A DNA stretch of 64,000 bases from Deltaproteobacteria bacterium (GTDB lineage: Bacteria; Myxococcota; Kuafuiibacteriia; Kuafuiibacteriales; Kuafuiibacteriaceae): the NCBI GenBank assembly GCA_040218735.1, contig JAVJQW010000017.1, positions 352,001 through 416,000 of the forward strand, read 5' to 3'. A model generated the notes under the pieces. The model was given only the letters and a program-made list of their open reading frames with translations, did no database searches and had not been told where the DNA came from. A program made the position numbers and the translations under genes. Numbering within the stretch: position 1 is the first letter of the stretch; each line of letters opens with the position of its first letter. Shown here piece by piece: positions 30,459 to 60,533 of the stretch.

Positions 30459-30533
30459 GGGGCGATAGGCATCGCCCCGATCCCGCGCGCGCGCAACCCT
30501 CAAAAAGGGGGGCCGATTTCCCTCGGCCGACAA

Positions 30534-30589
30534 CGGCCAGGACCGGCCGATCGGAAGCCCCCAAGCGTCCGATCGACCGGTCCCTGCCG
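30534..30589 (-). terminator. Long imperfect hairpin just downstream of the 30598-32694 gene
   Basis: cggccaggaccggccgatcgga pairs with tccgatcgaccggtccctgccg; no clear U-tract. Confidence 0.5.
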
Positions 30590-30597
30590 ACCGGGGC

Positions 30598-41551: not shown

Positions 41552-41792
41552 GGCCCCCAAAAGAGCAGGATCCGAGGATCGGGACAACGCGGCCGGCCCA
41601 ATCGGTGCGCAACCCGGTATCGAAGGGCACGCCGCCTTCATAAAAGGCGCGGCGGATCCCAACTCAGTCCCCGTCGATGCCCCCGTGACGTCCTTCGACC
41701 GCATACCGCTCTCGTGGCCGCGATCACGGGTTTCGCGGCCTCCTGGCCCCGCGTTGTCTCCTATCCGTGAACGTGCAATCTCGGGGGCCACG

Positions 41793-42593
41793 GTGAACCG
41801 CGCGGCGCAGCACGTGTTGCCCTGGGCCCTCGCGCTGCTCGTCTGCTCGAGCGGCTGCGTCGCGGTCTACCAGCCGCTGTCCGGGATGCACGACCCGGTC
41901 GTCGTCGACCCGACGCTCGGCAACCTCCACGACGTCCGGATCCTCGTCCACTGCGTTCCCCAGGAGATCCTCGACGGCGAGGCCGGCCTCCTGTGCCAGC
42001 GCATCAAGACGCTGTTCGAGAACCAGGGCGCCGAAGTCCGCACCGTCACCTCCATCGGACGTAGCGCCGAAGACGAGACGTTCGAAGCCCCCGTCGAGCT
42101 CGAGCCCGCGAAGCCGGAGCCGGCCGAGCCCGGGAGCGCGGCCAAGACGGAGGGCGCCAAGGAGGAGAAGGCGCCGCCGCCGCGCATACGCCCGCACCTG
42201 ATCGTCGAGCTCCGCGCCCGCCACCTCCACGAACACGTCGACTACCCGATGTGGACCCTCAGCTGGTTCACCGGGACGCTCGCCCCCGGGATCTCCGAGA
42301 ACACCTTCGTCCAGGAGGTCGTCATCCGCGGCCCGCGCGGATCGCTGCTCGGCCAGGGTGAGCTCAAGGGGCGCATCGTCCGCTACTTCGGCCTGGGCTA
42401 CTGGGCGGTGAACGGCCTCCTCGACCTCCTCTTCCGCGACGACGACGACGAGCTCTCCGACGCGAACCTCTCGGAGCAGCTGAGCACCGATCTCTACGGG
42501 CAGCTCAGCCAGATGGTCTTCAACGCCAACATGCGCCGGCGGGTCCTCGATCCCGAGCCGTCTCCCACGAAGAAGAAGGATGACGCCTCGTGA
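41793..42593 (+). CDS. Lipoprotein, gene 1 of the motor operon
   Basis: GTG at 41793; lipobox LVCSSGC; alpha/beta domain with hydrophobic hairpins. Confidence 0.75.
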   Translation: MNRAAQHVLPWALALLVCSSGCVAVYQPLSGMHDPVVVDPTLGNLHDVRILVHCVPQEILDGEAGLLCQRIKTLFENQGAEVRTVTSIGRSAEDETFEAPVELEPAKPEPAEPGSAAKTEGAKEEKAPPPRIRPHLIVELRARHLHEHVDYPMWTLSWFTGTLAPGISENTFVQEVVIRGPRGSLLGQGELKGRIVRYFGLGYWAVNGLLDLLFRDDDDELSDANLSEQLSTDLYGQLSQMVFNANMRRRVLDPEPSPTKKKDDAS

Positions 42594-43228
42594 TCATCTT
42601 CTTCTTCCTCGGGCTCCTCACGTTGCCGTCGATGATCACGCTGTGGAACGACCCAGCGCCGGGGCTCATCACGAGCTACGAATCGTCGCGGCGCTACAAC
42701 TGCGAACGCGCCACGTTGGAATCCGCCCGCCGCGCGTACCCGGGGCTCCTCGAAGATCAGTACCCGCGCGGTGACTTCATCGAGCGTTCGGCGGTCCTGT
42801 GTACCGAACCCATCGTCGGCGTGGATGTCCGCCACAAACGCGACGCCGCCATCCTCGGCGGGCTCACGCCGACCGTACGGAGCGTCGCTTCGCGGATCGC
42901 GGCCGAGCAGCCCGAGAAGACGTGGCTCGTCGAGGTGCACTACCCGAACGCCGCGGTCGTCGCGAAGGTCGCGTTCGCCGCGAAGGCCGCGCTCGTCGAG
43001 TCTGGCGTCCCCGTCACGGATCGCCTGCCGACGCTCGCGACGGGCGACGTCGACGTCCTCTCGCGCACCCCCGCCTTGAAAGCGCACGCGCTCGCGTGTC
43101 GGCGTTACTTCGCGACCGGCCGCCTCGAAGGCGACGACGCCGTCCTGAGCCTCCTCGTCCTCGACAGCCGCGAGACCGCGCTGCACGCGGGGATCTGCAT
43201 CAACGGAGCGTGGACGTGGCTGCAGTGA
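42590..43228 (+). CDS. N-terminally anchored periplasmic protein, gene 2
   Basis: Hydrophobic N-terminus, four Cys, GTGA overlaps at both ends. Confidence 0.72.
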   Translation: MIIFFFLGLLTLPSMITLWNDPAPGLITSYESSRRYNCERATLESARRAYPGLLEDQYPRGDFIERSAVLCTEPIVGVDVRHKRDAAILGGLTPTVRSVASRIAAEQPEKTWLVEVHYPNAAVVAKVAFAAKAALVESGVPVTDRLPTLATGDVDVLSRTPALKAHALACRRYFATGRLEGDDAVLSLLVLDSRETALHAGICINGAWTWLQ

Positions 43229-44397
43229 GGCTCACCGCGCTCGTGATGGCGCTGCTGGTCCCCGGGGTCGCCGTCGCCGACGAGGTCGACGACGCGACGC
43301 TCGCCAAGTTGGACGAGCTCCGCAGAGCCAAGGCCAATGAGATCCAACTCAGCGCCTACAACCTGGTCGACGAGCTGGTGTACGGCTGGACGAAGACCCC
43401 AGTGTTCCAGCAGGAGACCGACGTCGTCCTTGCGGGCGTGACGGTCCCGGTGGGTTTGGGCACGGCGCTGTCGAGCCTCGTCGAAAATCATATCAACGAC
43501 GTACTCATCAAGAACCCATCCACGCGGATGACGTTGACCCACTGCCCGGCCTGCACCGCGATGATCGTGCACTCCGGGCGCGACGGTACGGTGATATCGC
43601 GCGGGGTCGACAACCCCGAAGCCTTCGACCGCCTACGGCGCGACACCAGCACGAAGTACGCGCTGTTCGTCGACATCGAAGCGGAGGGCACCTCGCTCGT
43701 CCTGCGCGCGCGCATCACCAAACTCGACACGAGCCTCTCCATCGTCTGGGCCCGAACGATCGCGAGCGCGAGTGACACCCGCTCGATGCTCCGCGAGGCC
43801 GACGACATCAAGTCGGTCGAGGAGGCTCGGCAAGAGCTCATGGCCGCGGTCGAGGACCGCTGGCCGCTCGTCGTCCCGGCGCGCATCTCCGTACGGTTCT
43901 TCTCCGACGGCGGCAGCACCGGCGTGAACCCACCGCCCTTCGTGTGGATCCAGTCCGGCGTGGAGCTCGCGCTCAGTCAGGAGCGCGCTTGGACCGCGAG
44001 TTTCCTCCTCGGCTACGGCTGGGTCCCGAGCTCCTACGACGGGTTCATGGCGCAAGTGCGCATCCACCGCCTCCTCACGGGTGAGTCGCGTTCGTACGTG
44101 CGGCCCGACGCCTACGCATTCCTCGGTGCATCGCTGTTCGCCGTGCAGGGGCCCTCGGCGCTGATCTTCCAGCGCGACCAACTCACGACCGAAGACATCC
44201 TCGCGATCGCGCAGGGCAACGACCAACCCATCCAGATCGTCAGCACCGTTCACGCCGGTCTCGAGCTGAGGATCGGCAACCGCATGGGCCTCAACGTTTT
44301 TGCCGAGCTGCTCCCGGCCCACATCGGCTCCAACAACCTCGGGCTCTTCCTGGATCTCTTCCACTCCTTGGGCACGGAGGTGAGCGTTTGGTTCTGA
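43225..44397 (+). CDS. Exported protein: alpha/beta domain + predicted beta-barrel, gene 3
   Basis: Signal peptide ending AVA; CPAC; amphipathic strands; C-terminus GTEVSVWF (beta-signal-like). Confidence 0.75.
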   Translation: MRLTALVMALLVPGVAVADEVDDATLAKLDELRRAKANEIQLSAYNLVDELVYGWTKTPVFQQETDVVLAGVTVPVGLGTALSSLVENHINDVLIKNPSTRMTLTHCPACTAMIVHSGRDGTVISRGVDNPEAFDRLRRDTSTKYALFVDIEAEGTSLVLRARITKLDTSLSIVWARTIASASDTRSMLREADDIKSVEEARQELMAAVEDRWPLVVPARISVRFFSDGGSTGVNPPPFVWIQSGVELALSQERAWTASFLLGYGWVPSSYDGFMAQVRIHRLLTGESRSYVRPDAYAFLGASLFAVQGPSALIFQRDQLTTEDILAIAQGNDQPIQIVSTVHAGLELRIGNRMGLNVFAELLPAHIGSNNLGLFLDLFHSLGTEVSVWF

Positions 44398-45383
44398 AGC
44401 GACACCTCGCGCTGACCGCCGCGCTCGTCGTCGGGTCGACCAGCCCGGCGTACGCCGATCGTTCCACGACACAGGACGCCCTCGACCGCATGGTGGAGGT
44501 GCTCCAGCTCCGTATCGACGACGGCACGTTGCGGAAGCCGGAGATGACGCCCGCGCTCGTGGTGCGGACGGAGACCCGGTACGAGGAGTCGAAGGATTGG
44601 TTCCCGAACGAAGCGCTCAATCGGTTGATCGAGGTCCTCGGCGCGAAGGACCTCCGGCTCTGCGAGGCGTGTATGACGCCGCGGGTGTTCACGGGTGACG
44701 GGCGCCTCGAGCACAGCTCCGGGCCGATCACTTTGGAGGAGATCGTTCGCCTCGACACGATGGCGCGCGGCGACGCCGAGGCCGCCAAGACCGCGATCTG
44801 GGTCGACGAGCAGGCGACCGGGGTGTCGGTCAAGATCGTCGAGCTCGCGACTGCGCGGGTGCTCTTCGCGCAGAACATCGACCCGATGCTGCGAGAGCAG
44901 GAGAACACCGAGGGCCTCATGCGCCTCAGCGCCGAGCTGGAGCGGCGTGCCCGCGGCGACAGCCTCACGCACGCCTTCGTGGATCTCGCGCTGCTTCCGA
45001 GCCAACACATCTCGTTCGACTGGACGGACCAGTGGGGCGAGGAGAACAAGAACTTCACGGGCATCACGATCTCCGCGTTCGATCCGGTCTTCGGCGTCGG
45101 CGTCGCGTACTACCGGGTGTTCGGCGTCTTCCACATCGCCGACATCCCCTTCGCTCCGCAGTTCGGCGGGAAGGTCGTGGTGAGTCTACCGACGGCCATC
45201 GTGAACGCCGTCGCGCCCGACGACGCGGGGGACCTCATCGACCCGATCCTCACGGGGGTCGGTGTCATACGCGTGCCTTTCGGCACGTCCAACTATGCGC
45301 TGGTCGCGACGCTCTCCACGAACGCGCGTTTTGCGATCGGCATCTCACTGCTGAACATCAGCTTCCTCCCGGTGATCCCATGA
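44388..45383 (+). CDS. Exported protein: alpha/beta (CsgG/FlgO-like) domain + beta-rich C-terminus, gene 4
   Basis: Signal peptide ending AYA; CEAC; KIVELATARVLFA motif; amphipathic strands. Confidence 0.75.
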   Translation: MVLKRHLALTAALVVGSTSPAYADRSTTQDALDRMVEVLQLRIDDGTLRKPEMTPALVVRTETRYEESKDWFPNEALNRLIEVLGAKDLRLCEACMTPRVFTGDGRLEHSSGPITLEEIVRLDTMARGDAEAAKTAIWVDEQATGVSVKIVELATARVLFAQNIDPMLREQENTEGLMRLSAELERRARGDSLTHAFVDLALLPSQHISFDWTDQWGEENKNFTGITISAFDPVFGVGVAYYRVFGVFHIADIPFAPQFGGKVVVSLPTAIVNAVAPDDAGDLIDPILTGVGVIRVPFGTSNYALVATLSTNARFAIGISLLNISFLPVIP

Positions 45384-46012
45384 AAAGAACCGTACTCATC
45401 GTCGTCGGTCTCATGAGCTCCGCGTGCGCAGCGCGAAGTTATACCCACTACCTCGTAGCGCCCGCGCCCAAGAAGGCGCCGCCGATGGAGGAGGAAGGCA
45501 CCCTCGTACGTCCGCTCGCGTACGGCTCGACGACGGTGATGAAGGTGCGGTGGAACGACGGCAACACGATGACGGAGGTGCACGTCCCTCTTCTCGCGAG
45601 CGGACAGCGCATCGTCATCGAACACGAGAAGAAGCCCGAGGGCGTCGACACCATCCCTTCCACACGCCTCGTACCGCCGCGCCCGACGCCGGCGGACGAC
45701 TCACTCGTCGAGGCGTACCGCGAACGCGGCCTCGCGATCGACGAGGAGGCCCCGGAGGTCTCGATCTCCCGCGCACGCACCGCGATGAACGACGCCATCG
45801 CCCAGGGCAGCTATGCGATCGCGCTGGAGTGGGCCGAGATGGTCCTCGCTCGCTACAAGTCACATCCGGAGTTCCTTCGCGCGAAGGCATCCATCCTCTT
45901 GCTGATGGGTGAACGCGACAAGGCGATTCAAATCTACGAGAAGGCCGAGGAGATCGAGAGTGATCCCGCGGTCCGCAAGAAGTTGGAAGAGCTGCAGAAG
46001 CAGACGCAATAG
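45380..46012 (+). CDS. TPR lipoprotein, gene 5
   Basis: Lipobox MSSAC; TPR FLRAKASILLLMGERDKAIQIYEKAEEI. Confidence 0.82.
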   Translation: MKRTVLIVVGLMSSACAARSYTHYLVAPAPKKAPPMEEEGTLVRPLAYGSTTVMKVRWNDGNTMTEVHVPLLASGQRIVIEHEKKPEGVDTIPSTRLVPPRPTPADDSLVEAYRERGLAIDEEAPEVSISRARTAMNDAIAQGSYAIALEWAEMVLARYKSHPEFLRAKASILLLMGERDKAIQIYEKAEEIESDPAVRKKLEELQKQTQ

Positions 46013-46024
46013 GAAAACGATCGA

Positions 46025-46744
46025 ATGCAACTCATTGGCCTGTCCCTCGTTGGTTTCGTCGTCTGGTACGGCTTCGCCGATCGCGACATGACGCGCATCT
46101 CCCCCTTCGATGCGCACGCGCTCGTGATGGTGTTGGTGGGCTCGCTCGCCGCCGTCCTGACTTCGTCCTCGCGCCTGACTACGGTGCGAACGTTCCTCTT
46201 CCTCCGGGAGCTCGTCCCCGGCCTCGCGCGGTTCTCGCCGGACACCGACTCACTCGAGGCGGAGCGCAAACAGGTCGGCGCGCTGTGGCGTGAAGGCAAC
46301 CGCGCTCAGGCCGTCGCCCTCGCGGAGCGAAGCAACTTCCCGGCAATCAAACGCATGCTCGAGCTCCTCCTGGGACGTGCACCGCGTGCCGCGACGGAGA
46401 CCGCGTTCACGGAGCTGAAACACGCCGAGCTGGGGAGCTGGCAGCCCGCGGTGTCGAACTGGGAGATGCTGGCGAAGCTCGGGCCGTCGTTCGGGATGGT
46501 CGGAACCATCACCGGCATGATCCAGCTGTTCCGCAACATGGGCGCCGACAACCTCAACATCGGCGCAGCGATGTCGCTCGCGTTGCTCGCCACGCTGTAC
46601 GGCGTCGCGTTCGGCGCAGGCATCGCAGGCCCCATCGGACACTACCTGCGCACCCTGTTGGACGAGCGCCTCGGCGCCATCGAACGCTGTGAGCAGAGTG
46701 TGTACGAGCTCGTCGCGCTCTCCGTGGGCGAGGCACGGAGGTAG
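46025..46744 (+). CDS. motA: MotA-family stator subunit
   Basis: Four hydrophobic segments; ALVMVLVGSLAA, GPSFGMVGTITGMIQ and AMSLALLATLYGVA...P motifs; flagellar MotA-like length. Confidence 0.88.
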   Translation: MQLIGLSLVGFVVWYGFADRDMTRISPFDAHALVMVLVGSLAAVLTSSSRLTTVRTFLFLRELVPGLARFSPDTDSLEAERKQVGALWREGNRAQAVALAERSNFPAIKRMLELLLGRAPRAATETAFTELKHAELGSWQPAVSNWEMLAKLGPSFGMVGTITGMIQLFRNMGADNLNIGAAMSLALLATLYGVAFGAGIAGPIGHYLRTLLDERLGAIERCEQSVYELVALSVGEARR

Positions 46745-46747
46745 GTC

Positions 46748-47374
46748 GTGCAGCGGAGGGTCTTCGGAAGTGAGGAGGGGTGGCTACTCTCGTACGCCGA
46801 CCTCATCACGAACTTACTCATCTTCTTCGTGATGCTGCTCGCCGCCGCGAACATCAGCCGCACGAAGATGCAGCAGATCTCTCAGAGCCTCTCGGGGATC
46901 GAGAGCAAGCAGAGCCTCTCTTCGATCAAGCAGGAGATCGACGAGCGCATCCACAAAGAGGGGATGGAAGGTCTGGTTCAAACGAAACTCACCGACGACG
47001 GCCTGGAGCTGTCGCTGAACTCGGGGTTGGTGTTCGACTCCGGGCGCGCCGACATCCGAGCGGAGATGACGACGGCGCTCGGCGGCATGCTGAACACGCT
47101 CGTCCCGTACAGTGAGAAGTACGCGTTCGCGGTCGAAGGCCACACCGACTCCAAACCCATCATCAACGGCACGCTGTTCAAGTCGAACTGGGAGTTGTCG
47201 ACGGAGCGCGCCAACGCGGTGCGCGGGAAGCTCGAGGACGTGGGCGTGGACCGCACGCGGATTCGCGTCGAAGGTTACGCGGACACACGACCCCTGCCGG
47301 CGAAGGAGCTGGAAGGCCTCGACGAAGAGGAGCGACTCGCGCGCCACAGGCGTGTGATCGTGCGGGTGTACTGA
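46748..47374 (+). CDS. motB: MotB-family stator subunit (TM Asp + OmpA-like PG-binding domain)
   Basis: WLLSYADLITNLLIFFVML; EGHTD, SNWELSTERANAV, GYADTRP and RRVIV motifs. Confidence 0.93.
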   Translation: MQRRVFGSEEGWLLSYADLITNLLIFFVMLLAAANISRTKMQQISQSLSGIESKQSLSSIKQEIDERIHKEGMEGLVQTKLTDDGLELSLNSGLVFDSGRADIRAEMTTALGGMLNTLVPYSEKYAFAVEGHTDSKPIINGTLFKSNWELSTERANAVRGKLEDVGVDRTRIRVEGYADTRPLPAKELEGLDEEERLARHRRVIVRVY

Positions 47375-49167
47375 TGAAGCGCCTCGCAACGTTCCTCCTC
47401 GTGTCGCTGTCGGCGTCGACCGCGATCGCCCAGAACCCCTCGATTCCGGACCGGCGCATTCCGCCGTCCGTGCTCGCCGAGCTCCGCGTCCTGCAGGACC
47501 GGTTCGACGAGGCGCTCGCGCAGGACTGCGCTTCGGTGCGGTGTTTCTCGAAGGGTTGTACTTACCTCGATCACACGGTCTCGGATCGTCCGCGCGCGAC
47601 CGCCCTGCCCGGTCTCGCCGAGGATCAGGGCCCCGGCGCCGAGCCGGCTCAGGAGTACCTGACCCTCGCGCGCTGCGCCTTCGCCTATGAGCAGGACATG
47701 GAGGCGAAGGACGCGACGGCGTTGGCGCGTCGCCTGCGGACCAAGCTGTCGAACGGCTGGACGACGGTGGAGATCGGTCGGCAGCGCCTCCAACCCATCC
47801 CCGCGGAGCTCCGTGAGCCGCCGGCCCCTCCCGAGCCCGAAGAAGAGGTCGTCGAAGAACCGCCGGCCCCGGTGGTCACGCCTCCCAAGGAGCCCGAGTG
47901 GGGGTTCAACATCGCGGTGCGCGAGCTCTGGGTGAACCTTCTCCCGCATTTCGCCTGGATGATCGCGCTCGTGATGCTGACGTTTGCGGCGCTCATCCTC
48001 ATCTGGGGCTGGCGTCGCCTCGGGCGAATATCACCCGAGGAGCAGGCGCTGCTCGCGCAGATGGGTGCGTCCGACAAACCAGACGAGGCGGCGCTCGAGC
48101 CCGAGGTCGCGGACGAAGAACCCGAGGAGACCGAAGAGGTCTTCGTCGGCAAACAGAGCGCGTACTGGACGGAGCGGCTGTCGCAAAACGGCCACCCCGA
48201 CCCGGACGTGCAGGCGCTGATTGCGCAGTGGCTGAAGGAACGTGAGATGGGTTTGCTCGCGAAGGCCGTGTTGACGTTCCCCGAGGCGTTCCCGCGAGCG
48301 TTCCCGGACGGCGGTGAGTTCGCAGAGTCGAAGCTCCACTTCTCCGAGTACCTCCGCGAAGTGAAGCAGCCCGAGCTGCCGACGGACGAGGTCTTCTACA
48401 AGCAGCTCAAACAACACGCGCTGTCGGCCTCCCTCGCGCGGCAGGAAGACGTGACTTCGATGGCGACGCTGCGCGATGAGTTCGGTGCGTCCGGGCTGGT
48501 CCGCTTCATCCAGAAGCTCCCGCCTCGGTTCGGGGCGCTGTTGTTCGCGCACGCTTCCACGAGCGACCAGCTCGAGGCCGCGCGGCTGTTGTCCTCCGGA
48601 CAGGTCACGACGCTCGCAGAGCAGCTGCTCCAGTCCAACCGGATGAGTCGCGCGGAGAGTAGGTACGTCATGGAGCTGCTGTCGGCGAGCCGTACGGACC
48701 AGACGCTCCCGCCGCCGCCCGACGTCACCGAGGTGACGGACCTCGGGCGGACCTTCGACGCCGCCTCGGCGCTGTCGATCCTGCTGCCACGGGCCGAGCC
48801 GCACGATCGGAACCTGCTGCTGACCAACGCGAAGATCCGCTTCGGCGGTGGGTTTCCGAGTTGGTACGAGCAGATCCTCTTCCCGGAGATGGTGCTGGCG
48901 CTCGACGAGGAAACACGCGCGAACGTCTTGCTCGCCGTCGACGCCAACGCGCTCTCGGGTTGGATTTCGGTGCTCTCGGAGCAGAGCCGCGCGGCGCTCC
49001 TCGGAAGCATGTCGCCGACGCTCCGGGCGGCGGTGTCGTCCGGCGCGCGGTTCGAGTCGCGCGCCGAGCAGCTCGAGCGGTTCCGCGAAGGTCGGGAACA
49101 GACGGCGGCGGCGCTTCAGCAGCAGCTCGCGCGTACCGGCACGCCGTTCGAGAGTGTGATGGCCTGA
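47374..49167 (+). CDS. Single-pass membrane protein, putative mini-FliF/FliG-like rotor fusion
   Basis: Signal peptide, ~120-aa periplasmic domain, Pro/Glu linker, TM aa ~189-213; cytoplasmic part aligns by eye to the FliF C-terminus (DPDVQALIAQWL), FliG_M and FliG_C. Confidence 0.65.
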   Translation: MKRLATFLLVSLSASTAIAQNPSIPDRRIPPSVLAELRVLQDRFDEALAQDCASVRCFSKGCTYLDHTVSDRPRATALPGLAEDQGPGAEPAQEYLTLARCAFAYEQDMEAKDATALARRLRTKLSNGWTTVEIGRQRLQPIPAELREPPAPPEPEEEVVEEPPAPVVTPPKEPEWGFNIAVRELWVNLLPHFAWMIALVMLTFAALILIWGWRRLGRISPEEQALLAQMGASDKPDEAALEPEVADEEPEETEEVFVGKQSAYWTERLSQNGHPDPDVQALIAQWLKEREMGLLAKAVLTFPEAFPRAFPDGGEFAESKLHFSEYLREVKQPELPTDEVFYKQLKQHALSASLARQEDVTSMATLRDEFGASGLVRFIQKLPPRFGALLFAHASTSDQLEAARLLSSGQVTTLAEQLLQSNRMSRAESRYVMELLSASRTDQTLPPPPDVTEVTDLGRTFDAASALSILLPRAEPHDRNLLLTNAKIRFGGGFPSWYEQILFPEMVLALDEETRANVLLAVDANALSGWISVLSEQSRAALLGSMSPTLRAAVSSGARFESRAEQLERFREGREQTAAALQQQLARTGTPFESVMA

Positions 49168-49170
49168 GTC

Positions 49171-51213
49171 ATGCGGCGCGTCCTCGCAATATCGATGTTG
49201 CTGACCGCGGCTTGTCTGAAGCTGCCGGTCTCCGACGTCAATGCGGGGTTCGATCTCGCGGATGCGTCCTGGTTCCAGGACGAGGAGACGCTGTTCTTCT
49301 TCTACGAGGTCTCCGCCGAGCAAGGTCTCAACGAGGCGAGTGTCATCGAAGTCACCTACCGGACCGACACCGAGACGGTGCCGTGGACGCGCATCGATCA
49401 GCTCGAGTACGTGCACCCTCACCTTCCGGTCGACTGTGGGTTCACGCGTCGCTGTGGGAGCCTGAGTTTGCACGTCCCCGATCGACCGCGCGAAGTCGGG
49501 ATCCGGTTGCGCTATCACGAGGACGGCGAGCTCGCGCTCACCACGGAGACGGTCTTCAACGCGATAGGGTCGGGCCCGGCGCACTCGAACCGCAGCTTCC
49601 TCGTGTACGGCGTGTTCACTGCGAACAATCAGCGCGTGCAGTGGCGCGGTCGCCACCGCTTCCCGACATTGCGCAACGAACAGGTCCAGGAGCTCGGCCT
49701 GCGACGACGCTTCCAGGTCGATGCGCACGCGTACGGCTCCGCCGACTTCCCGCGGTTCGCCAACCCATATGGCTACGGCGTGGCGTGTCCCTCGTCCTTC
49801 GTGCCGCTCGGCTTCTCGGCGATCAGTACCCAGGACCGCGCGGTGTTCGACACGCAGGACCTCCCGCAGGAGGCGGCGACGTCGGCGCAGGTTTGTGCGC
49901 GCGCGACGGTGCTCGAGCCGAGGGCGCCGTTTGTCACGTCGGCGCTCGCGCAGAAGAACCCCGAGGTGGAGCCGGCGTTCCCGGTGCTGCGGACGCCGAT
50001 TCACGAGGCGACGCCGATCAAGTTCTTCCTCGCGCCGTGTGACCGCACGATCGACGCGGACCACGAGGAGATGCAGCGGCAGCGCATCCTCTACGACGGC
50101 CCGGCCACGTGTGTGGAGGATTGGCGGGCGCCGGACTTCGTGGACCGGCTGGTGGGACGGCTCGAGGAAGCGATCGAAGCGACGCGTCCCGCGGGTGAGG
50201 ACATGGTGCTCGTGATGGCGCTGCACCGCGAGAACTCGGAGGACGAGCTCGCGGACCAGCTCGAGGAGGTGCTCTCTCAGATCCTCCCGTCCGAGCGAGA
50301 CCGCGCGACGCCGCGGGTCGTGGGTGCGTTTGTCTTCGACAGTGAGATTCGCGACGTCCGCGACCCCGTGCTCAACCGGCTGATCCTGTGGTGCCCGGCG
50401 AGCATCGTCGACGACGAAGAGGTGGAGCCCGGTCCGTCGAACGCGAACTGCGCGATCACGCCGGACAACGTGAACCTATCGCTCGGACCGTTCTCACTGT
50501 CGTTCCTCCCGATCCTGCCGTCGCGCAACCGGTACCTGGACTTCATCGACCGGTACTCCAAAGCGCAGGCCGGCGAAGTGAAGGAGCTGACGTTCCTTGT
50601 CCCGGAGTTCACGCCGACCACGGACAACACGCAGGTCGGTGGGTTGGTCGCGACGTTCTTCAATCAGGAGATCATTTCGGCACAACCCGAGGACGCGTTT
50701 TCGTTCTGCCCGTCGGAGGAGCCGCAGCCGTTTGTCTTCCGCACGGAGATCTCCAAGTCGGACGACCTCGATTGTCCACCCGGCCAAGAACCCACCGAGG
50801 ACGACTTCTGCCTCCCGCCGCCTCAGGACTTCCTGCCAATCGAATTCCTTCCGATGTGGCACGACGTCCTGCAGGAGCAGACCTACGAGCTGGGGCTCCT
50901 GTGGGACTTCCCGTGGCTGATGCGTGCGACCTACGAGGTCGTCGCCGCGGCGAGCGCGAGTGCCTTCGGGCTCAGCGTCCCGTTCGGCTTCGGAGCGGAG
51001 CAGATGGAACAGCTCGGCGCGCCGCAGTGGCTTCGCGGTGAGTTCCCGCTCGCGGAGCGCCTCGCGCACTGCAAGCGGTTCTGCGACCACCCGACGTTCG
51101 ACTCCGCTGGGATCTACAACGTGACGCGTTCCTTCCGGTCGACGTACCTCGACGGTTGTTACCGCCCCTCGTACCCGGCGCTGGGAGATTCGAGCTTCCC
51201 ACGTGATCCCTAG
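49171..51213 (+). CDS. Large Cys-containing lipoprotein, gene 9
   Basis: Lipobox LTAAC; 680 aa; no family recognised. Confidence 0.8.
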   Translation: MRRVLAISMLLTAACLKLPVSDVNAGFDLADASWFQDEETLFFFYEVSAEQGLNEASVIEVTYRTDTETVPWTRIDQLEYVHPHLPVDCGFTRRCGSLSLHVPDRPREVGIRLRYHEDGELALTTETVFNAIGSGPAHSNRSFLVYGVFTANNQRVQWRGRHRFPTLRNEQVQELGLRRRFQVDAHAYGSADFPRFANPYGYGVACPSSFVPLGFSAISTQDRAVFDTQDLPQEAATSAQVCARATVLEPRAPFVTSALAQKNPEVEPAFPVLRTPIHEATPIKFFLAPCDRTIDADHEEMQRQRILYDGPATCVEDWRAPDFVDRLVGRLEEAIEATRPAGEDMVLVMALHRENSEDELADQLEEVLSQILPSERDRATPRVVGAFVFDSEIRDVRDPVLNRLILWCPASIVDDEEVEPGPSNANCAITPDNVNLSLGPFSLSFLPILPSRNRYLDFIDRYSKAQAGEVKELTFLVPEFTPTTDNTQVGGLVATFFNQEIISAQPEDAFSFCPSEEPQPFVFRTEISKSDDLDCPPGQEPTEDDFCLPPPQDFLPIEFLPMWHDVLQEQTYELGLLWDFPWLMRATYEVVAAASASAFGLSVPFGFGAEQMEQLGAPQWLRGEFPLAERLAHCKRFCDHPTFDSAGIYNVTRSFRSTYLDGCYRPSYPALGDSSFPRDP

Positions 51214-51976
51214 CGTCCTCGCTGCGCTCGTGCTCATGAGCCCGGGCGCGACAACGACGTCCTCCGACGCCCCGACCCTCTCGCGGTTCAAGCTGCCGTG
51301 GGAGATCTTGGTCGACAAGACGGTGGGGACGACCACGAAACCCGTGCGGTTCGACTGGCGGCGCACGAGCGTGCACGTCGGCGCATTTGCCGCGCAGCCG
51401 GCCGAGTTCAACAACTACAACTCGTTTCGCTCCGGCGTGCTCGCGCGGATCCCATCCGACGCCCTGATGTACGAGCTGGGCCTGAGCTACGTCTGGGTGT
51501 TCGAGACGGAAGCGAGCAAACGGCTCGCGCTCACGCCGTACCGTCAGCCGGGTCGACCGCAGCGCTTCGAGATCGACTTCTCGGTGGGTGTGCCCCTGGC
51601 GGAGGGTGTCGTGACCGTGTGGCCTTCGTGGTTCCCGGCGGCCGAGCTGGTGTTCAGCGCGTACTTCAACCTCCGCTATTTGATCTATCCGAGTGGGTTC
51701 GAAGGGCTGAGCTTCCGGAATATCCTCGGCTCTTCGTTGTCACCGAAGATCAGCGACGACGAAATCGAGAACCTCGACGACAACCGCCTCCCCGGGATGG
51801 AGGTCGACCGCACCCGGTACTCGCTCTACGCGGGGCTGGGGACGGACATCTACTTCGACTTCGGGCTCTTCGTCGCGCCGCGCATCATGCTCGCGGTGCC
51901 GCTGCTCGCGGGGATCGCGGAGTCCGAGATGGGCTTCTCGATGGAGTTCTCCCTCGCGTTGGGAGCAGCGTTTTGA
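51203..51976 (+). CDS. Predicted small outer-membrane beta-barrel protein, gene 10
   Basis: Hydrophobic N-terminus, alternating strands (YELGLSYVW, YAGLGTDIYF), C-terminus FSLALGAAF. Confidence 0.72.
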   Translation: MIPSVLAALVLMSPGATTTSSDAPTLSRFKLPWEILVDKTVGTTTKPVRFDWRRTSVHVGAFAAQPAEFNNYNSFRSGVLARIPSDALMYELGLSYVWVFETEASKRLALTPYRQPGRPQRFEIDFSVGVPLAEGVVTVWPSWFPAAELVFSAYFNLRYLIYPSGFEGLSFRNILGSSLSPKISDDEIENLDDNRLPGMEVDRTRYSLYAGLGTDIYFDFGLFVAPRIMLAVPLLAGIAESEMGFSMEFSLALGAAF

Positions 51977-53817
51977 TCGGCGTCGTCGCCGCGCTCCTGA
52001 TCGCGGGCGTCGAGCCCGACCCGGCGACGCTCGTCTACTACAACGCAAGGATGCAGCTGAGGGAGCGCCGCTCCGAGGACGTGCTGCGCCTGTGGCTCCT
52101 GCGAAATTCCTTGGAGAGCCAAGAGCGTGCGCTGTCCGCGTACGACGAAGACTTCAAGAGCCTCGTGTGGGTCGCGCTCGGCGACCTCGGCTACTGCCAA
52201 GACGGCATCAGCTTCGACGACGACGGCGCCGGTTTATGGCCCCTCGCGCTCCACAACTGGTTCCTCCGCAACATGCGACGCGGCGAGGCGCCGGACCAGC
52301 CGGCGCCGTTCGACGCCTTCGACATCCCGCAGCAAGCGCGGTTCGTCACGCTCCAGGACGTGCTGAGCGTCGACGAGCTGAATTCCGTTCGGTTCTACCG
52401 GACCGATTGCTACCGCATGAAGGAGGTCCTCTCGGCGGGCGGCGTGAAAGGCGAGCCCAACGAGCGCAAGGTGCAGGTCGCCGTGTTGCGCTTCCTGCTG
52501 GAGGCCGCACGACACACCACGCAGCGTCCGCAGGTCCGCGGTCAGGCGACGATCGAAGCGCGGCTCCTCGACCTCCGCCTGAAGAAACTCGACCTCGTGG
52601 ACCGAGAGCAACGGAGCGCGGAGCGAGAACGTAAACGCCGCGTACGGGATCTCGGCGGCACGTTCGTCGAGGCCCCGAGCATCGCGCAGTCGGAAGAAGT
52701 CGCGGAGCTTCTGTCGGTCACCGACGGGTGGGTTGCGGACGACTGGCTCGCGCTAGAGCCGGGGCGACGCCTGTACCTCTACGACTGGGTTCTCAGGGCG
52801 AAGCGCGAGAACCCAGAAGTCACGCGCTCGATGATCGACCGGTTGATGACCAGCGAGGACACGTCGGAGGTCGGTGCGTGGATCGCGTTCACCGGTGACA
52901 GTGACACCGCGAAGGCGAGCATCTGGTCCGGCGAGCGCGGACGGCGGCTCCTCGCGCTCGATCCGAAGACCGGCTTCAGGGAGCGCGCGGCGATCGCATT
53001 GCACCGTGGCGTCGATGCCGTCGGCAAAGGTGACCTCCCCGAGGCGCTCCGATCTCTGGCCTACACGCTGAAGTACGCCGACGAGTCCACGCAGTCGGAG
53101 GCGGTGCGTCGCCTCGGCCTGCGGTGGATGTCGTTCGTCGCTGGTCGCTTCGCCGTTTCGGAGGCGCTGATGACGATGCTCGTCGAGCTCGTCCCGCGCG
53201 GTGACCTGTCGCAGGTCCTGGAGGGGCTGATCTGGGACGCCGCGATGTCGTCGGACCTCGAGTCGTTCGACCGGACCGTCAAAGCGCACCGCGGACGTGG
53301 CGCCCTCGCGCTGCGCATCGAACGGCTGCGCCCGCTCGCGGAAGGTGACGTCGGCGCGTTCCTGACGCGCATCCGTTCGGAGCTCCCCGAGTCCCCCCAC
53401 GCGACGCTCCGATTCCTCCGCCGGTTCCTGGAGCGGCTCGAAACCCAGGACGGCGACGTGCGCGCGATGCACCGCGCGACCCTGGAGGCGATCGATCGGG
53501 AGCTCGCCAAGGCCACGGAGATCCTGGAAGGCGGCCTGGGCCGAAACGCCCGTGAGTTGGAGCAGGTGACGAACGCGATGCTCGAAGGACTCGATGTGAT
53601 CGGTGACTCGGAGCGCGAGCGCGCCCGAGCGTTGTCACCGACGAGTGAGGTGTTCGCGGGGAGCATTCGCCTCGCGCCGACGGACGCGCTCCCGTGGCCG
53701 TTCGTGGTGCCGACGATTCGTCCGCCGTCGGTGTTCAGTCCGTTGAAGATCACGCCGGTCGAGTGGCCGGACGCGTCGGGCGAAGGGTTGGTGATGGGGT
53801 GGAAGCTCGGTCGCTGA
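51973..53817 (+). CDS. Exported alpha-helical (TPR-like) protein, gene 11
   Basis: TTG start overlapping the upstream stop; short hydrophobic N-terminus; helical repeats (LHRGVDAVGKGDLPEALRSL). Confidence 0.75.
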   Translation: MIGVVAALLIAGVEPDPATLVYYNARMQLRERRSEDVLRLWLLRNSLESQERALSAYDEDFKSLVWVALGDLGYCQDGISFDDDGAGLWPLALHNWFLRNMRRGEAPDQPAPFDAFDIPQQARFVTLQDVLSVDELNSVRFYRTDCYRMKEVLSAGGVKGEPNERKVQVAVLRFLLEAARHTTQRPQVRGQATIEARLLDLRLKKLDLVDREQRSAERERKRRVRDLGGTFVEAPSIAQSEEVAELLSVTDGWVADDWLALEPGRRLYLYDWVLRAKRENPEVTRSMIDRLMTSEDTSEVGAWIAFTGDSDTAKASIWSGERGRRLLALDPKTGFRERAAIALHRGVDAVGKGDLPEALRSLAYTLKYADESTQSEAVRRLGLRWMSFVAGRFAVSEALMTMLVELVPRGDLSQVLEGLIWDAAMSSDLESFDRTVKAHRGRGALALRIERLRPLAEGDVGAFLTRIRSELPESPHATLRFLRRFLERLETQDGDVRAMHRATLEAIDRELAKATEILEGGLGRNARELEQVTNAMLEGLDVIGDSERERARALSPTSEVFAGSIRLAPTDALPWPFVVPTIRPPSVFSPLKITPVEWPDASGEGLVMGWKLGR

Positions 53818-53828
53818 AGCGTCGCGCG

Positions 53829-54452
53829 ATGCGGCGCGAGCTGAGCGAGCGGCGACGCGCCATGCGCGCGGCGCTGAAGGCGCGGCGCCGGGCCCTGCAG
53901 GCGGAGCTGCGCGCGCGGCGCGGAAAGCTTCCGAAGACCTCGTCGTCGAAGTGGCGACGTCGGGTCGTCATGGCCCTGATCATCATCCTCTTGCTCCTGC
54001 TGCACCTGTGCACCGAAGAGCCGCCGCCCCAGGTCGGCAAACCCACGCCCCCCGCGCCGCTGGTGTTCGGCCCACCAGCCCCCCCGCCGACGCCGGAGCC
54101 ACCACCGATTCGTCGTCGGCTGAAGAAGCGCGAGCGCCCCGACTACACGAGCGCTCCGCCGCGAAAGAAGCCGTGGCTCGACGCCTACCGCCTGCAGGTC
54201 GCGGGACGCAGCGTCGTGCTCGCCACGTGTTTCGAGGGGGTCGAGCGCCCGGGCGCGGTGCGGTGGGTGGCGTCCGTCGACGTGAAGACCGGTCAGGTCG
54301 CCGAGCACGAGCTGGAGCCCGTCGCCAACGGTGTCGTGCTCAGCCAGGCGCACAAGAAGTGTCTGATCGCCGCGCTCTCGAAGCCGTATCGCCTGGAGGC
54401 GACTGAACCGAGCAGCACCCCCGAGCGCGTCGCGATGGTGCTCGAGTTCTAG
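53829..54452 (+). CDS. Basic N-terminus / TM / Pro-rich linker / TonB_C- or AgmX-like domain protein, gene 12 (alternative GTG start at 53799)
   Basis: Arg-rich helix, TM VVMALIIILLLLLHL, PPP linker, LATCFE...VRWVASVD..TGQV...KCLIAAL. Confidence 0.65.
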   Translation: MRRELSERRRAMRAALKARRRALQAELRARRGKLPKTSSSKWRRRVVMALIIILLLLLHLCTEEPPPQVGKPTPPAPLVFGPPAPPPTPEPPPIRRRLKKRERPDYTSAPPRKKPWLDAYRLQVAGRSVVLATCFEGVERPGAVRWVASVDVKTGQVAEHELEPVANGVVLSQAHKKCLIAALSKPYRLEATEPSSTPERVAMVLEF

Positions 54453-56587
54453 GAGGCCTGGCGCTCTTGCCGAATCGCCGCGTAGCGCTCGCGGTACCGC
54501 TCGTAGAACGGCCGGTACGCGTGTTTGTACTTGCAGTCCGCGAAGAGGTAGCGCCCGGAGATCGGCGGTTTGTGAAACTGCCGGAAGAGGAATGCGATGA
54601 ACGCCCACGACGCGAACAGCGCGGGGCACAGCGCCCACTGACCCGTCATCGCGATGTAGACCATTGCGATGGGTACGGTCGTCGCTTTCAACCCGAACAA
54701 CGGCACCGTCAGGCTGTACGTCGACAACATGATGAGTCGACGGTTCTTGTGGAACAACACGGCGAGCCCCGCGCATAACGTCGTCCACGCGACCATTCCG
54801 GCGATCTCTCCCGGCTGGAACCCACCCGCCGGGATGTTCAGGAGCGGCTCGACCACGAAGTCGAACATGAGGAGGACGACGAAGAGGTAGCCGAGCAACA
54901 CGTCCCACAGACACGACGCGAGCAGGAACATCAGGATGCTCCAGTGTTCGTTGTGCGCCGCGATCTTGCGACCGAGCGCCTCCGCACCTTCGACCGCGTA
55001 CTCACCCTCCATGCGGAACTTGAGCGCGTTGTTCGGATGAAGGAGCTCGAACCGCAGGTTGCGGAACGCCTTCAGCGGGTTCCAGGACAGACCCGACCAG
55101 AACTTACGCCCGATCCCCACGAACTCGGCCACGTCGGCCGTGTACAACCCATAGTTGACGAGGTGATCGGTGGGGGTCCGCGAAGAACCCACTGGATAGT
55201 AGTAGTCGTTGTAGTCCTCGATACGCTGGTGGATGTCTTCGTACAGTCCGGACCTTCGATCTTCGTCGGTCAGCAGCTTGTGGATCATCACCGCCTGCAT
55301 CTCGGTCATGTTCGCGAGACCCCCGGTGAACGGGCGGGTATAGCCGAGGAAGAAGACGTTGCGCAGATCCTCGGGGACCACGCCCAGGTACGTTCCGCGG
55401 TACGCGTAGGCGTACTGGTGTCGCGTGCCGTCCTCGCTGACGAAGTGAATTGGTGGGAGGCGTGGCTCCTCGGAGCCTCCGTCGATGAAGTGATCGAAGT
55501 GTTCGATGCGACCGTCGCAGCGGATGGTGCAGGTCTCCATGTCGACCGTCGTCCGATCCTTCGACCACGTCTCCACGAGCCCTTCCGTGTGGAAGAAGAT
55601 GAGGTCGTTCATCAGCACGCCGTTTCGAATGCGGTCGTCGACGTCGTCGCCGAAGCGCTGCTCGTACATGTCGATCGGCCAGTACTTGATGCCGCTCATC
55701 CCGTTCGCGTGACCGGCGCGCGCCTGCGCGTTCGCGCGAACGCGCCCGCGGCGGTAGGTCTCCGGACGCAGCACGTGGAACTTGTGGGGGAGCAGCGTCC
55801 TGGAGACGATCGACTCCGGCTCCGGCGGCCCGAGCGGGATCGCGAACAGGTCCTTGTAGAACCGCGGCCAGAACCGACCGACGTTGTGGAACTCGAGCTG
55901 CGCGAGATCCAGCGCGTAGCGCTTGCCCGTTCGAACGCCGAAGATGGGTAGGTACCACTGTGACTTCGGCCCCGGCGTCTCGAAGGTGACGTACTTGTCG
56001 AGGTTCACGAAGCCATCGTTGAGGAGGATGACTTTGTTCCCCTGGGGCACGGCCTTCGCCACCATCATGTTCGCGGTGTCGCCGATCGTGTTGAAGACCA
56101 AGGTCTGCCCTTCGATCTTCTGGATATCGAGCTCCTTGATCGTCTCGTTCTGCGGGCGCCCGAGCCCCGTCGCGAAGACGAGGTTCTTGGTCTCGTAGAC
56201 CTTCCCGCTCTCGGTACGGACGACGCTGCGGTCGCTGTAATTGTCGACCGCGACCACCCGGTCTTCGATCACCTTGTCGCGGTACGGCGCGAAGATGCGT
56301 TCGTGATACTCGAAGAACTCACGCGCCGTCGGGTAGTAGTTGTCGATGACGTTCGCCTCGACCTGATCCTCGACGTAGAACGACGCGTGAAACGAGCTGA
56401 CGAGGTCGAAGTCGAGGCGGTCGTTCGCTGCGAGCTGCTGCCAGATCGGCGTCCCGTGCGAGAGCACCGTGTACGCCTGCCCGCGGGCATCGAGCTCGCG
56501 TAGCAGCGGGATCGCCGAGAAGCCGAATCCGACGATCAGGATCTCGACACGTTCTGCAATGGGAGCGGAGTCCGGAGCGGCGTCCAT
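54449..56587 (-). CDS. Flavoprotein (FMO/pyridine nucleotide-disulfide-like) with multi-TM C-terminal extension
   Basis: ILIVGFGFSA, LVFATG and NVFFLGYTRP...EMQA motifs; hydrophobic C-terminal ~150 aa. Confidence 0.75.
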   Translation of the reverse strand: MDAAPDSAPIAERVEILIVGFGFSAIPLLRELDARGQAYTVLSHGTPIWQQLAANDRLDFDLVSSFHASFYVEDQVEANVIDNYYPTAREFFEYHERIFAPYRDKVIEDRVVAVDNYSDRSVVRTESGKVYETKNLVFATGLGRPQNETIKELDIQKIEGQTLVFNTIGDTANMMVAKAVPQGNKVILLNDGFVNLDKYVTFETPGPKSQWYLPIFGVRTGKRYALDLAQLEFHNVGRFWPRFYKDLFAIPLGPPEPESIVSRTLLPHKFHVLRPETYRRGRVRANAQARAGHANGMSGIKYWPIDMYEQRFGDDVDDRIRNGVLMNDLIFFHTEGLVETWSKDRTTVDMETCTIRCDGRIEHFDHFIDGGSEEPRLPPIHFVSEDGTRHQYAYAYRGTYLGVVPEDLRNVFFLGYTRPFTGGLANMTEMQAVMIHKLLTDEDRRSGLYEDIHQRIEDYNDYYYPVGSSRTPTDHLVNYGLYTADVAEFVGIGRKFWSGLSWNPLKAFRNLRFELLHPNNALKFRMEGEYAVEGAEALGRKIAAHNEHWSILMFLLASCLWDVLLGYLFVVLLMFDFVVEPLLNIPAGGFQPGEIAGMVAWTTLCAGLAVLFHKNRRLIMLSTYSLTVPLFGLKATTVPIAMVYIAMTGQWALCPALFASWAFIAFLFRQFHKPPISGRYLFADCKYKHAYRPFYERYRERYAAIRQERQAS

Positions 56588-56621
56588 GAAACGCCGGCAC
56601 TCTACCAACGTCGGCGCCGCC

Positions 56622-59006: not shown

Positions 59007-60119
59007 GTGGACACGATCCCCGGGTTCGAGATCGACGACGTCCTCGGCAAGGGCGGCACCGGGACGGTCTACCGCGCCAAACGCACCGAGGACGGTCAGG
59101 TCGTCGCGCTCAAGGTGCTCCCGCTCGACGAAGATCCGACGCGCCGGGCGCGCTTCGAGGTCGAAGCCAAGCTCGGCGCGGTCCTCGAGCACCCCGACAT
59201 CATCCACATCTACGGGACCGGCTCCCGAGACAACGTCGGGTGGATCGCGATGGAGCTCCTCGACGGCTTCGAGCTCGCGCTCGCGATGCGGGACGATGCG
59301 TTCGGCGTCGACGATCGGATCCGCGTGTTGATGCGCGTCGCGCTCGCGCTTCACACCGCGCACGAGCAGGACGTCGTCCATCGCGACGTCAAACCTTCGA
59401 ACATCTTCCTCACCCGCGACGGCGGCGTGCGGCTCCTCGACTTCGGCATCGCGCGCCTCGCTGCCAACAAGATCACGAAGACCGGATTCATCGTGGGTAC
59501 GCCGCAGTTCATGTCACCCGAGCAGATCTCCGCGCTCGCGGTCGACGCGCGCACCGACGTGTTCTCACTCGGCGTCGTCGCGTACGAGCTGCTCTCGGGG
59601 AAGCTCCCGTGGCACGGCGAGAACCACACGCAGATCATGATGGCGGTCTGTTCGAAGCCACCGATCCCGCTGCGGAGTGTCTTCGACGGATCACGATTCG
59701 AGCTCGACGAAGCGCAGGTCGATCACCTCGTTCGCATCGTGCACCACGCGATTCGCCAGGAACCACAACACCGCTACGCGTCGGCGCTGGAGCTCGCCAA
59801 CGCGCTGGAAGCTTACCTGGAGCGCACCGAGGGCGCGCTGGACGGCGACGCGCCCCTCCCGTCGATCGACGTCGACCCCGACGAGTTCATGAAGCGGCGC
59901 ATCGACTGGGCCGTCGCGCGCGCGGCGCGACTGAAGGTGGAAGAAGCGATCCCGGCGCCGCGCTCGAACGCCAGCGCCCCGCTACCCCGCGCGGCGACGC
60001 GCGAGCTGGACATCGACGAGCAGGACGAAGCGACCCGCTCCAACGCGCTCTGGTTCGTCTTGCTCACCGTGTTCCTGGTCGGGCTCGGCGCGGCGTTGTT
60101 CCTGCTGAAGACGGCCTGA
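59007..60119 (+). CDS. Ser/Thr protein kinase with C-terminal TM anchor
   Basis: GKGGTG, VALK, HRDVKPSN, DFG, GTPQFMSPE and DVFSLG motifs. Confidence 0.95.
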   Translation: MDTIPGFEIDDVLGKGGTGTVYRAKRTEDGQVVALKVLPLDEDPTRRARFEVEAKLGAVLEHPDIIHIYGTGSRDNVGWIAMELLDGFELALAMRDDAFGVDDRIRVLMRVALALHTAHEQDVVHRDVKPSNIFLTRDGGVRLLDFGIARLAANKITKTGFIVGTPQFMSPEQISALAVDARTDVFSLGVVAYELLSGKLPWHGENHTQIMMAVCSKPPIPLRSVFDGSRFELDEAQVDHLVRIVHHAIRQEPQHRYASALELANALEAYLERTEGALDGDAPLPSIDVDPDEFMKRRIDWAVARAARLKVEEAIPAPRSNASAPLPRAATRELDIDEQDEATRSNALWFVLLTVFLVGLGAALFLLKTA

Positions 60120-60128
60120 CCCGTCGGC

Positions 60129-60446: not shown

Positions 60447-60533
60447 TCACCTCCATGGTCGCGAGCGGGGCGAGAAAAAGCCAGCGGCAAGCGGGTGGCC
60501 GGCGTCACGGATTCACCGTAGGGATCAGGGGCG

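Follow-up and report, generated by a model that had tools for sequence, protein, structure and literature searches.

A candidate flagellum-independent stator and rotor machine encoded by a 12-gene envelope operon in Myxococcota

Relation to described ion-driven motors

The bacterial flagellum is, to our knowledge, the only system in which MotAB is known to turn FliG, and its rotor-stator core is the closest described counterpart of the system treated here. This system is encoded by an operon of 12 genes (g01 to g12) that fills positions 41793-54452 of the plus strand in a 64-kb stretch of Myxococcota DNA, analysed as a whole and called the window below. We consider it fairly probable that the operon encodes a self-contained, flagellum-independent envelope machine, in which an ion-driven stator would act on a FliF/FliG-like ring for mechanical work on the envelope. 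A first-pass annotation had put forward such a machine and had stated that it was aware of no account of one. Our literature searches, which covered full texts, likewise found no description of a non-flagellar operon combining MotAB with a FliG-like protein.

The likeness to the flagellar core extends over several parts. The operon encodes a MotA of the flagellar clade and a MotB that has a plug, the channel Asp and an OmpA-like anchor; a three-domain FliG fold is predicted under the inner membrane, and a domain resembling the ring-building motif (RBM, a term used in PMC4768692) takes the place of the last RBM of FliF. Besides, the stator is accompanied by a tetratricopeptide repeat (TPR) scaffold, which is also the case in some flagella. 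Unlike in the flagellum, a single chain joins the FliF-like and FliG-like parts and has one RBM-like domain and a single transmembrane helix, and the operon lacks genes for an export gate, ATPase, FliM/FliN, rod, hook, filament or L/P-ring. Neither the acidic pair of FliG's torque helix nor the EHPQR-type motif is kept. Moreover, the operon occurs in genomes without flagellar genes, and seven of the partners belong to no known family. With the export apparatus, the axial parts and the conserved torque-helix charges absent, the system would therefore work like the flagellar core without being a flagellum.

A comparable natural single chain is the FliF-FliG fusion of the Chlamydiaceae (Bergeron 2016, PMC4768692), which also joins one or more RBM-type periplasmic domains, a membrane span and a FliG-like cytoplasmic domain. 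As described there, this fusion belongs to bacteria held to be non-flagellated, has two transmembrane helices in ~330 aa, resembles FliG in its M region only and possibly partners with an injectisome. Its description sets it apart from g08, the rotor-like protein of our operon, which has all three FliG-like domains and is encoded beside MotA and MotB. Neither the chlamydial fusion nor the engineered FliF-FliG fusions of Salmonella, which still assemble and rotate, is presented with a stator operon of its own in the sections of PMC4768692 that deal with them. Other systems, namely ExbBD-TonB, TolQRA-Pal, AglRQS-Glt, GldLM-T9SS (type IX secretion system) and ZorAB, have in common with ours an ion-driven inner-membrane motor of the 5:2 type coupled to periplasm-spanning and outer-membrane proteins, as outlined in the relevant passages of PMC9389320 and PMC12505986. 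Their A subunits, however, are of the non-flagellar clade, and none of these systems is known to use a FliG-type partner. In its discussion of stator families, PMC12505986 distinguishes flagellar clades from generic ones and refers to homologues without a known function; the present system was not found named in that discussion. Its supplementary list of 379 stator homologues may include the present family.

If the proposed reading is true, the operon represents a new class of bacterial motor, in which the rotor-stator couple was kept and the secretion system, rod, hook and filament were dropped. A new function could then be sought in gliding, predatory myxobacteria that are already well studied (proteins identical to the orthologues are recorded under Archangium and Hyalangium names), and there would be a simple natural system for learning what a rotor-stator pair does alone and how the flagellar motor evolved. 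Should it be a sister or a forerunner of the flagellar motor, a living rotor-stator pair without a secretion system would be at hand, which bears on the origin of that motor.

The rotor-like protein and the stator pair

The protein g08 (47374-49167, 597 aa) belongs to the conserved core of the operon. Its AlphaFold2 (AF2) model, computed from an alignment of 45 homologues, reached a predicted local distance difference test score (pLDDT) of 85.8. In the model, a signal peptide is followed by a helix (residues 31-51), two strands (57-70 and 93-105), a second helix (111-125) and a third strand (130-138), and after residue 138 by a disordered Pro/Glu linker, a long helix assigned to the membrane (178-217) and an all-helical part (254-596). 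Residues 31-138 show an alpha-beta-beta-alpha-beta order, which is that of the ring-building motif, and four Cys of this domain are invariant or nearly so in the 45 homologues. The predicted layout comprises a periplasmic domain at ~30-140, a transmembrane helix at ~183-213, an acidic linker and a three-domain FliG-like cytoplasmic region at ~255-597. In a Foldseek search of the PDB, all 12 entries listed in ranks 1-13 were FliG chains, with E-values from 4.5e-4 to 6e-2, probabilities of 0.90-1.00 and 222-378 aligned columns. They include full-length Aquifex FliG and the FliG of Salmonella C-ring structures, so that the N, M and C domains are all covered. On this model, g08 is a periplasmic RBM-like domain, a transmembrane helix and a cytoplasmic region of FliG fold in one chain. 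Its likeness to FliF is one RBM-like domain, alongside one transmembrane helix, where FliF has three RBMs and two transmembrane helices; g08 is probably not a FliF MS-ring protein.

Sequence comparisons gave a weaker likeness to FliG. Searched alone against Pfam, it gave a sub-threshold match to MgtE_N (0.0085), a family matched by 33 of the 45 homologues (best 2.1e-9). An hhalign comparison with an alignment of true FliG proteins was collinear over 288 columns, nearly the whole of FliG, with an E-value of 0.0037; the FliG alignment was made of eight sequences of this phylum out of 13 loci, the other five being without a full match of an open reading frame (ORF). A paralogue of 561 aa from the same genome (contig C61), which passes the Pfam cut-off for FliG_C, aligned with g08 at 93% probability (E 2.8e-7). 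These results, together with the model and its listed structure matches, bear out the FliG fold that had been predicted for the protein starting at 47374. As to the torque helix, its charges in E. coli FliG are R281, D288 and D289, according to the part of PMC12505986 that treats them. The Arg of an S-L-R motif in g08 aligns with the first torque-helix Arg and is the sole charge of that helix to line up. Within residues 455-597, the alignment columns that are at least 80% charged are D456, D462, R479, R489, E505, E513, R515, D517, D523, R574 and R587. A predicted complex of MotA with residues 455-597 reached a best score of 0.17 against a mark of 0.32 in a run without controls, and speaks neither for nor against a contact.

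A search of 5.8 billion proteins returned 116 relatives of g08, of which 115 are at least 40% identical to it; their lengths are 567-661 aa, except for one of 418 aa. All are named 'hypothetical', and where an organism is named it is a member of the Myxococcota, apart from two records of metagenome-assembled genomes labelled Alphaproteobacteria bacterium and Proteobacteria bacterium. The 45 homologues used for the alignment and the profile were chosen from the 116 across the range of identity. A hidden Markov model search of 1.84 billion cluster representatives gave just 175 matches at E <=1e-3 (95 at 1e-30), and the family in the narrow sense is therefore small.

The stator pair lies directly upstream. 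The MotA-type A subunit g06 (46025-46744, 239 aa) matches PF01618 (MotA_ExbB) at 1.8e-15 and has four transmembrane helices and a cytoplasmic loop of ~100 aa. Its best NCBIfam matches are flagellar motor models (PRK09109 at 1.8e-14, PomA at 1.2e-11), TolQ reaching merely 0.096. The MotB-type B subunit g07 (46748-47374) matches MotB_plug (PF13677) at 1.7e-14 and OmpA (PF00691) at 2e-13, these two and the PF01618 match of g06 being above the Pfam cut-offs, and the NCBIfam models of MotD, MotB and MotS at 1e-26 to 2e-34; for both subunits the NCBIfam scores stay under the equivalog cut-offs of the models. The motA and motB calls of the first-pass annotation are confirmed by these Pfam matches. 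The channel Asp of the g07 transmembrane helix, D18 in 'SYADLITNLL', is kept in all 22 sequences (the window and 21 orthologues). An alignment of 17 of the 22 MotA sequences, made after leaving out four near-duplicates and the locus L074, has invariant P154 in the third and P203 in the fourth transmembrane helix, and invariant loop charges E62, R81, E130, H133 and E135. The motA frame of L074 (G260:C39) is open over 1055 codons as extracted; either a stop is missing or the frame simply stays open in G+C-rich DNA.

A tree was built from 19 of the 20 MotA_ExbB genes of the window's genome, a gene on contig C58 having been dropped for a wrong ORF call, together with five g06 orthologues. In this tree, g06, its paralogue on C61 and a PomA-like gene on contig C66 form one clade with support 100/99, outside which fall the 16 ExbB/TolQ-type paralogues of the genome. 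The inner order of the clade is unsure because its branches are long. The grouping with a PomA-like stator agrees with the earlier statement that the stator is not of the TolQR or AglRQS type. On this evidence, g06 and g07 encode an ion channel of the flagellar MotA/MotB type that has a plug, the channel Asp and an anchor to peptidoglycan.

Conservation, a paralogous core and the flagella of the carriers

Searched with the 45-homologue profile, the g08 family is found in 56 of 401 sampled Myxococcota genomes, that of the window included, and 43 of these carriers belong to the 316 genomes of high quality. The carriers span at least seven GTDB families; most are in one family (f9, 39 of 172 genomes), and the window's own family contributes one of 19. 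We compared 23 loci, of which 20 were fetched with ~10 kb on each side and three came from a single-protein search. In all 21 full-length loci the 12 genes stand on one strand in the order of the window, and the two shorter loci hold as many parts of the operon as fit. The conservation of gene order, which the first-pass annotation had named as a point to check, is thereby established over at least seven GTDB families. Apart from the operon, 42 genes were called in the window, and none of them is common to more than two of the 23 loci, where the neighbours are ordinary and unrelated; the upstream gene with OmpA and FecR-like domains, for example, is present in one. It follows from the constant order and the unrelated flanks that the 12 genes move, and are retained, as one whole.

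Identities to the window proteins were calculated for the 21 loci with the near-identical L030 left out, and range overall from 29 to 70%. The best conserved proteins include the TPR lipoprotein g05 (60-70%), along with MotA (58-69%) and MotB (60-65%). They are followed by g09 (41-51%), g08 (38-45%), g10 (36-47%), g01 (30-42%) and g02 (29-43%). The g08 match is free of stops in 55 of the 56 genomes. At the locus L077 (G348:C12), a frameshift or an assembly error divides g08, and likewise g11, into two frames.

These data bear on the notion that the operon is a relic of a lost flagellum without present function or else a Zorya-like anti-phage system, which we hold to be extremely improbable. 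A relic would explain why the parts derive from a flagellar motor, yet 12 intact genes in constant order, with such identities over several families and without stops in nearly all g08 matches, point to purifying selection and not to decay. As to Zorya, the MotB protein matches ZorB models (9.7e-21), as any MotB homologue would. Those were the only PADLOC matches: in the ten of the 12 proteins that were scanned (all except g02 and g10), no ZorA, ZorC, ZorD or other model was matched. Furthermore, the MotA protein with its 239 aa has no long tail, and its partners belong to the envelope, the exception being the FliG-like region of g08 in the cytoplasm. The earlier exclusion of Zorya is in line with these findings.

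DNA near-identical to 45380-49167 (at least half of the sampled words) was met in sponge, aquaculture and biofloc metagenome runs from three studies, which is no more than a hint at a marine or aquatic habitat. No RNA run turned up among the sequencing runs with near-identical operon DNA, which argues neither for nor against expression.

A second locus in the window's genome (contig C61, 23163-39988) shows which part of the operon is common to two versions. Its core, at 27503-32453, encodes in this order a 397-aa CxxC protein, a TPR lipoprotein, MotA, MotB and the 561-aa protein mentioned above, which passes both Pfam FliG_C (31.8 bits) and MgtE_N (32.9 bits) and whose relatives are sometimes automatically named 'flagellar motor switch protein FliG'. 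The MotA of this locus matches PF01618 at 2.1e-17 and its MotB has plug and OmpA domains; their identities to the window proteins are 30 and 38%, respectively. In the window, the five corresponding genes have the same order and comprise g03 (43225-44397), an exported protein with an H-C-P-x-C domain and a beta-rich C-terminal half, g05 (45380-46012), the TPR lipoprotein directly upstream of motA, and g06 to g08. The CxxC domain links g03 to the 397-aa protein in hhalign (probability 90.5%, E 1.4e-6), and g05 matches the TPR lipoprotein beside the paralogous MotA in BLASTP (E 0.001). A closed genome that has neither rod nor hook genes (L096) contains the five-gene core in collinear order as well. 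The accessory genes differ between the two loci, C61 having a 689-aa caspase-like protein (Peptidase_C14) upstream and a DTW-domain protein downstream. Partners of the g09 and g11 types are not detectably shared, as hhalign of g11 and g09 against the C61 proteins in the same positions was not significant (E 0.16 and 0.0085). The conserved core is thus made up of a CxxC exported protein, a TPR lipoprotein, MotA, MotB and an RBM-transmembrane-FliG-like protein, the last three being always accompanied by the first two. The other seven genes of the operon are lineage-specific additions.

The relation to flagella was followed both in the window's genome and among the carriers. The first-pass annotation had stated that no flagellar genes occur in the window; this stands for FHIPEP, FliP, FliMN_C, FliG_C, Flg_bb_rod and flagellin, none of which was matched, while FliI, FlhB and FliQ/R, which it had also named, were not searched. 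The window's genome does have a complete-looking flagellar cluster on contig C59 (375000-410000), with fliF-fliG-fliH, FlhA, FliP, FliN and rod and hook genes, as well as two flagellin genes on contig C41 (352764-356754). A cluster resembling a type III secretion system (T3SS) lies on contig C23 (304086-325271), 27-48 kb before the start of the window. In the same genome, seven FHIPEP (FlhA/SctV) matches were counted on contigs C23, C59, C41, C70, C38, C9 and C16, six of them of full length (663-796 bits), against two FliP matches; a full export gate thus seems to be lacking for several of the FlhA/SctV-like genes.

Among the 56 carriers, the FliG_C classes of which were read by hand, 29 have a canonical match (E <=7e-26), the window's genome being one of them. 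The other 27 are without a canonical FliG, 14 giving a weak match (1e-3 to 8e-7) and 13 none. In all five weak cases that were checked, the match was an ORF of 523-690 aa at a locus other than g08. The five closed carrier genomes (12-13.8 Mb) have no match to Flg_bb_rod and no rod or hook gene. Archangium and Hyalangium are known as non-flagellated gliders, and proteins identical to the orthologues are on record for Archangium minus, A. violaceum, A. lipolyticum, an Archangium sp. and Hyalangium rubrum; a further database match (P0063) is from Hyalangium gracile. The A. lipolyticum cluster includes a 271-aa member with the name A. gephyra. Two of the orthologues bear the UniRef title 'FliG C-terminal domain-containing protein'. 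Canonical FliG is common in the whole sample, where FliG_C exceeds its cut-off in 181 of the 401 genomes, a count that also includes FliG_C-bearing paralogues of 500-690 aa.

From these counts it can be judged whether the operon serves a flagellum or T3SS encoded elsewhere, as an extra stator with scaffold that forms rings like those of MotXY, PflAB or FlgP. In Vibrio and Campylobacter motors, stators are known to be accompanied by TPR scaffolds, and the flagellar cluster, flagellins and T3SS-like cluster of the window's genome agree with such a role, as do the 29 carriers with a canonical FliG. On the contrary, the 27 carriers without one and the lack of rod and hook genes in all the closed carriers speak for independence, and the operon brings its own FliG-like protein. 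No flagellar genes flank the operon in any of the 23 loci. In addition, the window's genome has another and much more canonical stator, the PomA/PomB-like pair on C66, to which the PomA model gives 270 bits, compared with 44 for g06. We judge an accessory role to be very improbable. On these figures, motAB is independent of a flagellum, and the possibility that it serves a normal one, raised in the first-pass annotation, is not borne out.

Taking both loci together, we entertain, at slightly less than even confidence, the wider view that the FliG-MotAB couple is used autonomously outside the flagellum, as a stand-alone ion-driven rotary envelope motor that occurs in two paralogous versions in non-flagellated myxobacteria and is here enlarged to a trans-envelope machine of 12 proteins.

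Proposed working and partner proteins

In the flagellum-independent machine that we favour, g08 would oligomerise into a ring in the inner membrane, like FliF/FliG. MotA5B2 units would be held on the peptidoglycan by MotB and scaffolded by g05 together with g03 and g04. Ion flow would make MotA5B2 push the FliG-like domain, so that the ring turns, and the motion might pass through the N-terminal domain of g08, the g11 solenoid, the g12 spacer protein and the g09 lipoprotein to the presumed outer-membrane parts g03, g04 and g10. The output would be a surface complex that is moved or turned, or a remodelling of the outer membrane. Mechanical work seems likelier than the export of a cytoplasmic substrate, because no ATPase, export gate, secretin, glycosyltransferase or hydrolase was found among the 12 operon genes.

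Several observations weigh against this reading. In the Foldseek search with g08, the FliF MS-ring and PrgK rank below FliG (probability 0.8-0.93, E 0.3-0.5). At the sequence level, FliG_C is matched by just one of the 45 homologues (E 0.043), the 45-homologue profile found no FliG among PDB sequences (best E 0.89, unrelated chains), and the hhalign probability of g08 against true FliG is 9%. In the hhalign register, which is of low confidence, the acidic pair of the torque helix is not conserved. The operon has neither FliM/FliN nor an axial, rod-like protein, and therefore no obvious shaft, and the canonical FliG of 29 carriers has to be counted here as well. We infer ring formation, rotation, the contact of MotA with g08 and the outer-membrane output. 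With these steps held as conditional, the idea of a stator and rotor machine independent of flagella is supported: gene order, FliG fold and flagellum dependence were each checked, and each left it standing.

Some of the same observations would also fit a non-rotary transducer of the Ton, Tol or Agl-Glt kind, in which MotAB energises conformational pulling on outer-membrane proteins through g12, through single g08 molecules or through both, the FliG-like region acting only as a docking adaptor and no large ring turning. The protein g12 (53829-54452, alternative start 53799) has an Arg-rich cytoplasmic N-terminus, a transmembrane helix, a Pro-rich spacer and a small C-terminal domain of ~90 aa with two invariant Cys, which is the layout of TonB. 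The combination of a TPR protein with lipoproteins and proteins of outer-membrane type in our operon resembles that of Agl-Glt; PMC3169522 and PMC11761067 deal with that system. The torque-helix charges that are not conserved and the absence of a rod or shaft gene agree with a transducer as well. Against it stand the position of g06 in the flagellar MotA/PomA clade and not in that of ExbB, TolQ and AglR, and the plug and OmpA domains that g07 has like a true MotB. The bitopic g12 is outside the core common to the C61 locus, and no match to TonB_C or any other model was obtained for it in Pfam (E <=0.1) or NCBIfam (E <=0.001); the first description of g12 as TonB-like holds for the layout and fails for the TonB_C model. 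Moreover, g08 resembles ring builders in keeping all three FliG-like domains together with one that is RBM-like. On balance, we think a non-rotary transducer rather unlikely.

The Pfam and NCBIfam scans yielded no family for g01-g04 and g09-g12. All products had been described as targeted to the envelope, and signal peptides, lipoboxes or transmembrane segments do show at the N-termini, both in the window proteins and among the orthologues. The lipoprotein g01 (41793-42593), with the lipobox ...SSGC and an acidic Pro-rich middle, has the lipobox-like Cys in the window and in the listed orthologues, and the small protein g02 (42590-43228), with an N-terminal hydrophobic anchor, has one in some orthologues. 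In g03, H106, C107, P108 and C110 of the N-terminal domain are invariant and the beta-rich C-terminal half ends in Phe; it is probably an outer-membrane part, and no Pfam family beyond chance matches was found among its 22 members. The exported protein g04 (44388-45383), with an invariant C-x-x-C (C92 and C95), is possibly a distant paralogue of g03, the hhalign match being weak (E 0.019, probability 2%) with the two Cys motifs aligned. The TPR lipoprotein call for g05 was sound, as the protein has a lipobox and matches TPR_14 at 3.5e-5, with 24.5 bits against a cut-off of 23.5.

Downstream of g08, g09 (49171-51213) is a large Cys-rich lipoprotein with a lipobox and ten invariant and two nearly invariant Cys. 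Its AF2 model (pLDDT 81.6, predicted template modelling score 0.70) consists of beta-sandwich domains, Ig- or macroglobulin-like (MG). Foldseek against the PDB gave generic Ig, MG and beta-sandwich matches only, with template modelling (TM) scores <=0.14 by query; no enzyme fold appeared among these structure matches, Pfam gave no family, and the Atlas yielded no usable result. The exported beta-rich protein g10 (51203-51976) is possibly a small outer-membrane barrel, and no barrel family was matched in Pfam or NCBIfam. For g03, g04 and g10 alike, we infer barrel status from sequence features. The all-helical exported repeat protein g11 (51973-53817) appears TPR- or solenoid-like and ends in an invariant 'RLAP.D.LPWPF' motif; its Atlas model is poor (pLDDT 0.47), the nearest neighbours being TPR and HEAT clusters with TM scores of 0.28-0.39.

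The G+C content of the window is 65-72%, and open frames alone therefore mean little. Genes were placed by a listing of start codons and by the G+C at the three codon positions. In all 12 operon genes, the third-position value is 0.84-0.94; g01, which the automatic caller missed, has 0.70, 0.43 and 0.94 at the first, second and third positions. Consecutive genes overlap by 1-11 bp or are separated by gaps of 3-12 bp, so that the tight co-oriented arrangement originally described was found again. The large upstream gene (39290-41560, minus strand), with its OmpA and FecR-like domains, is divergent and the downstream gene (54449-56608) convergent, and the operon is thus bounded on both sides. 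Further away in the window, at 33264-34940 (minus strand) and 59007-62219 (plus strand), the unrelated neighbours are a protein with GIY-YIG and exonuclease domains, a Ser/Thr protein kinase and a dCache-HAMP sensor protein.

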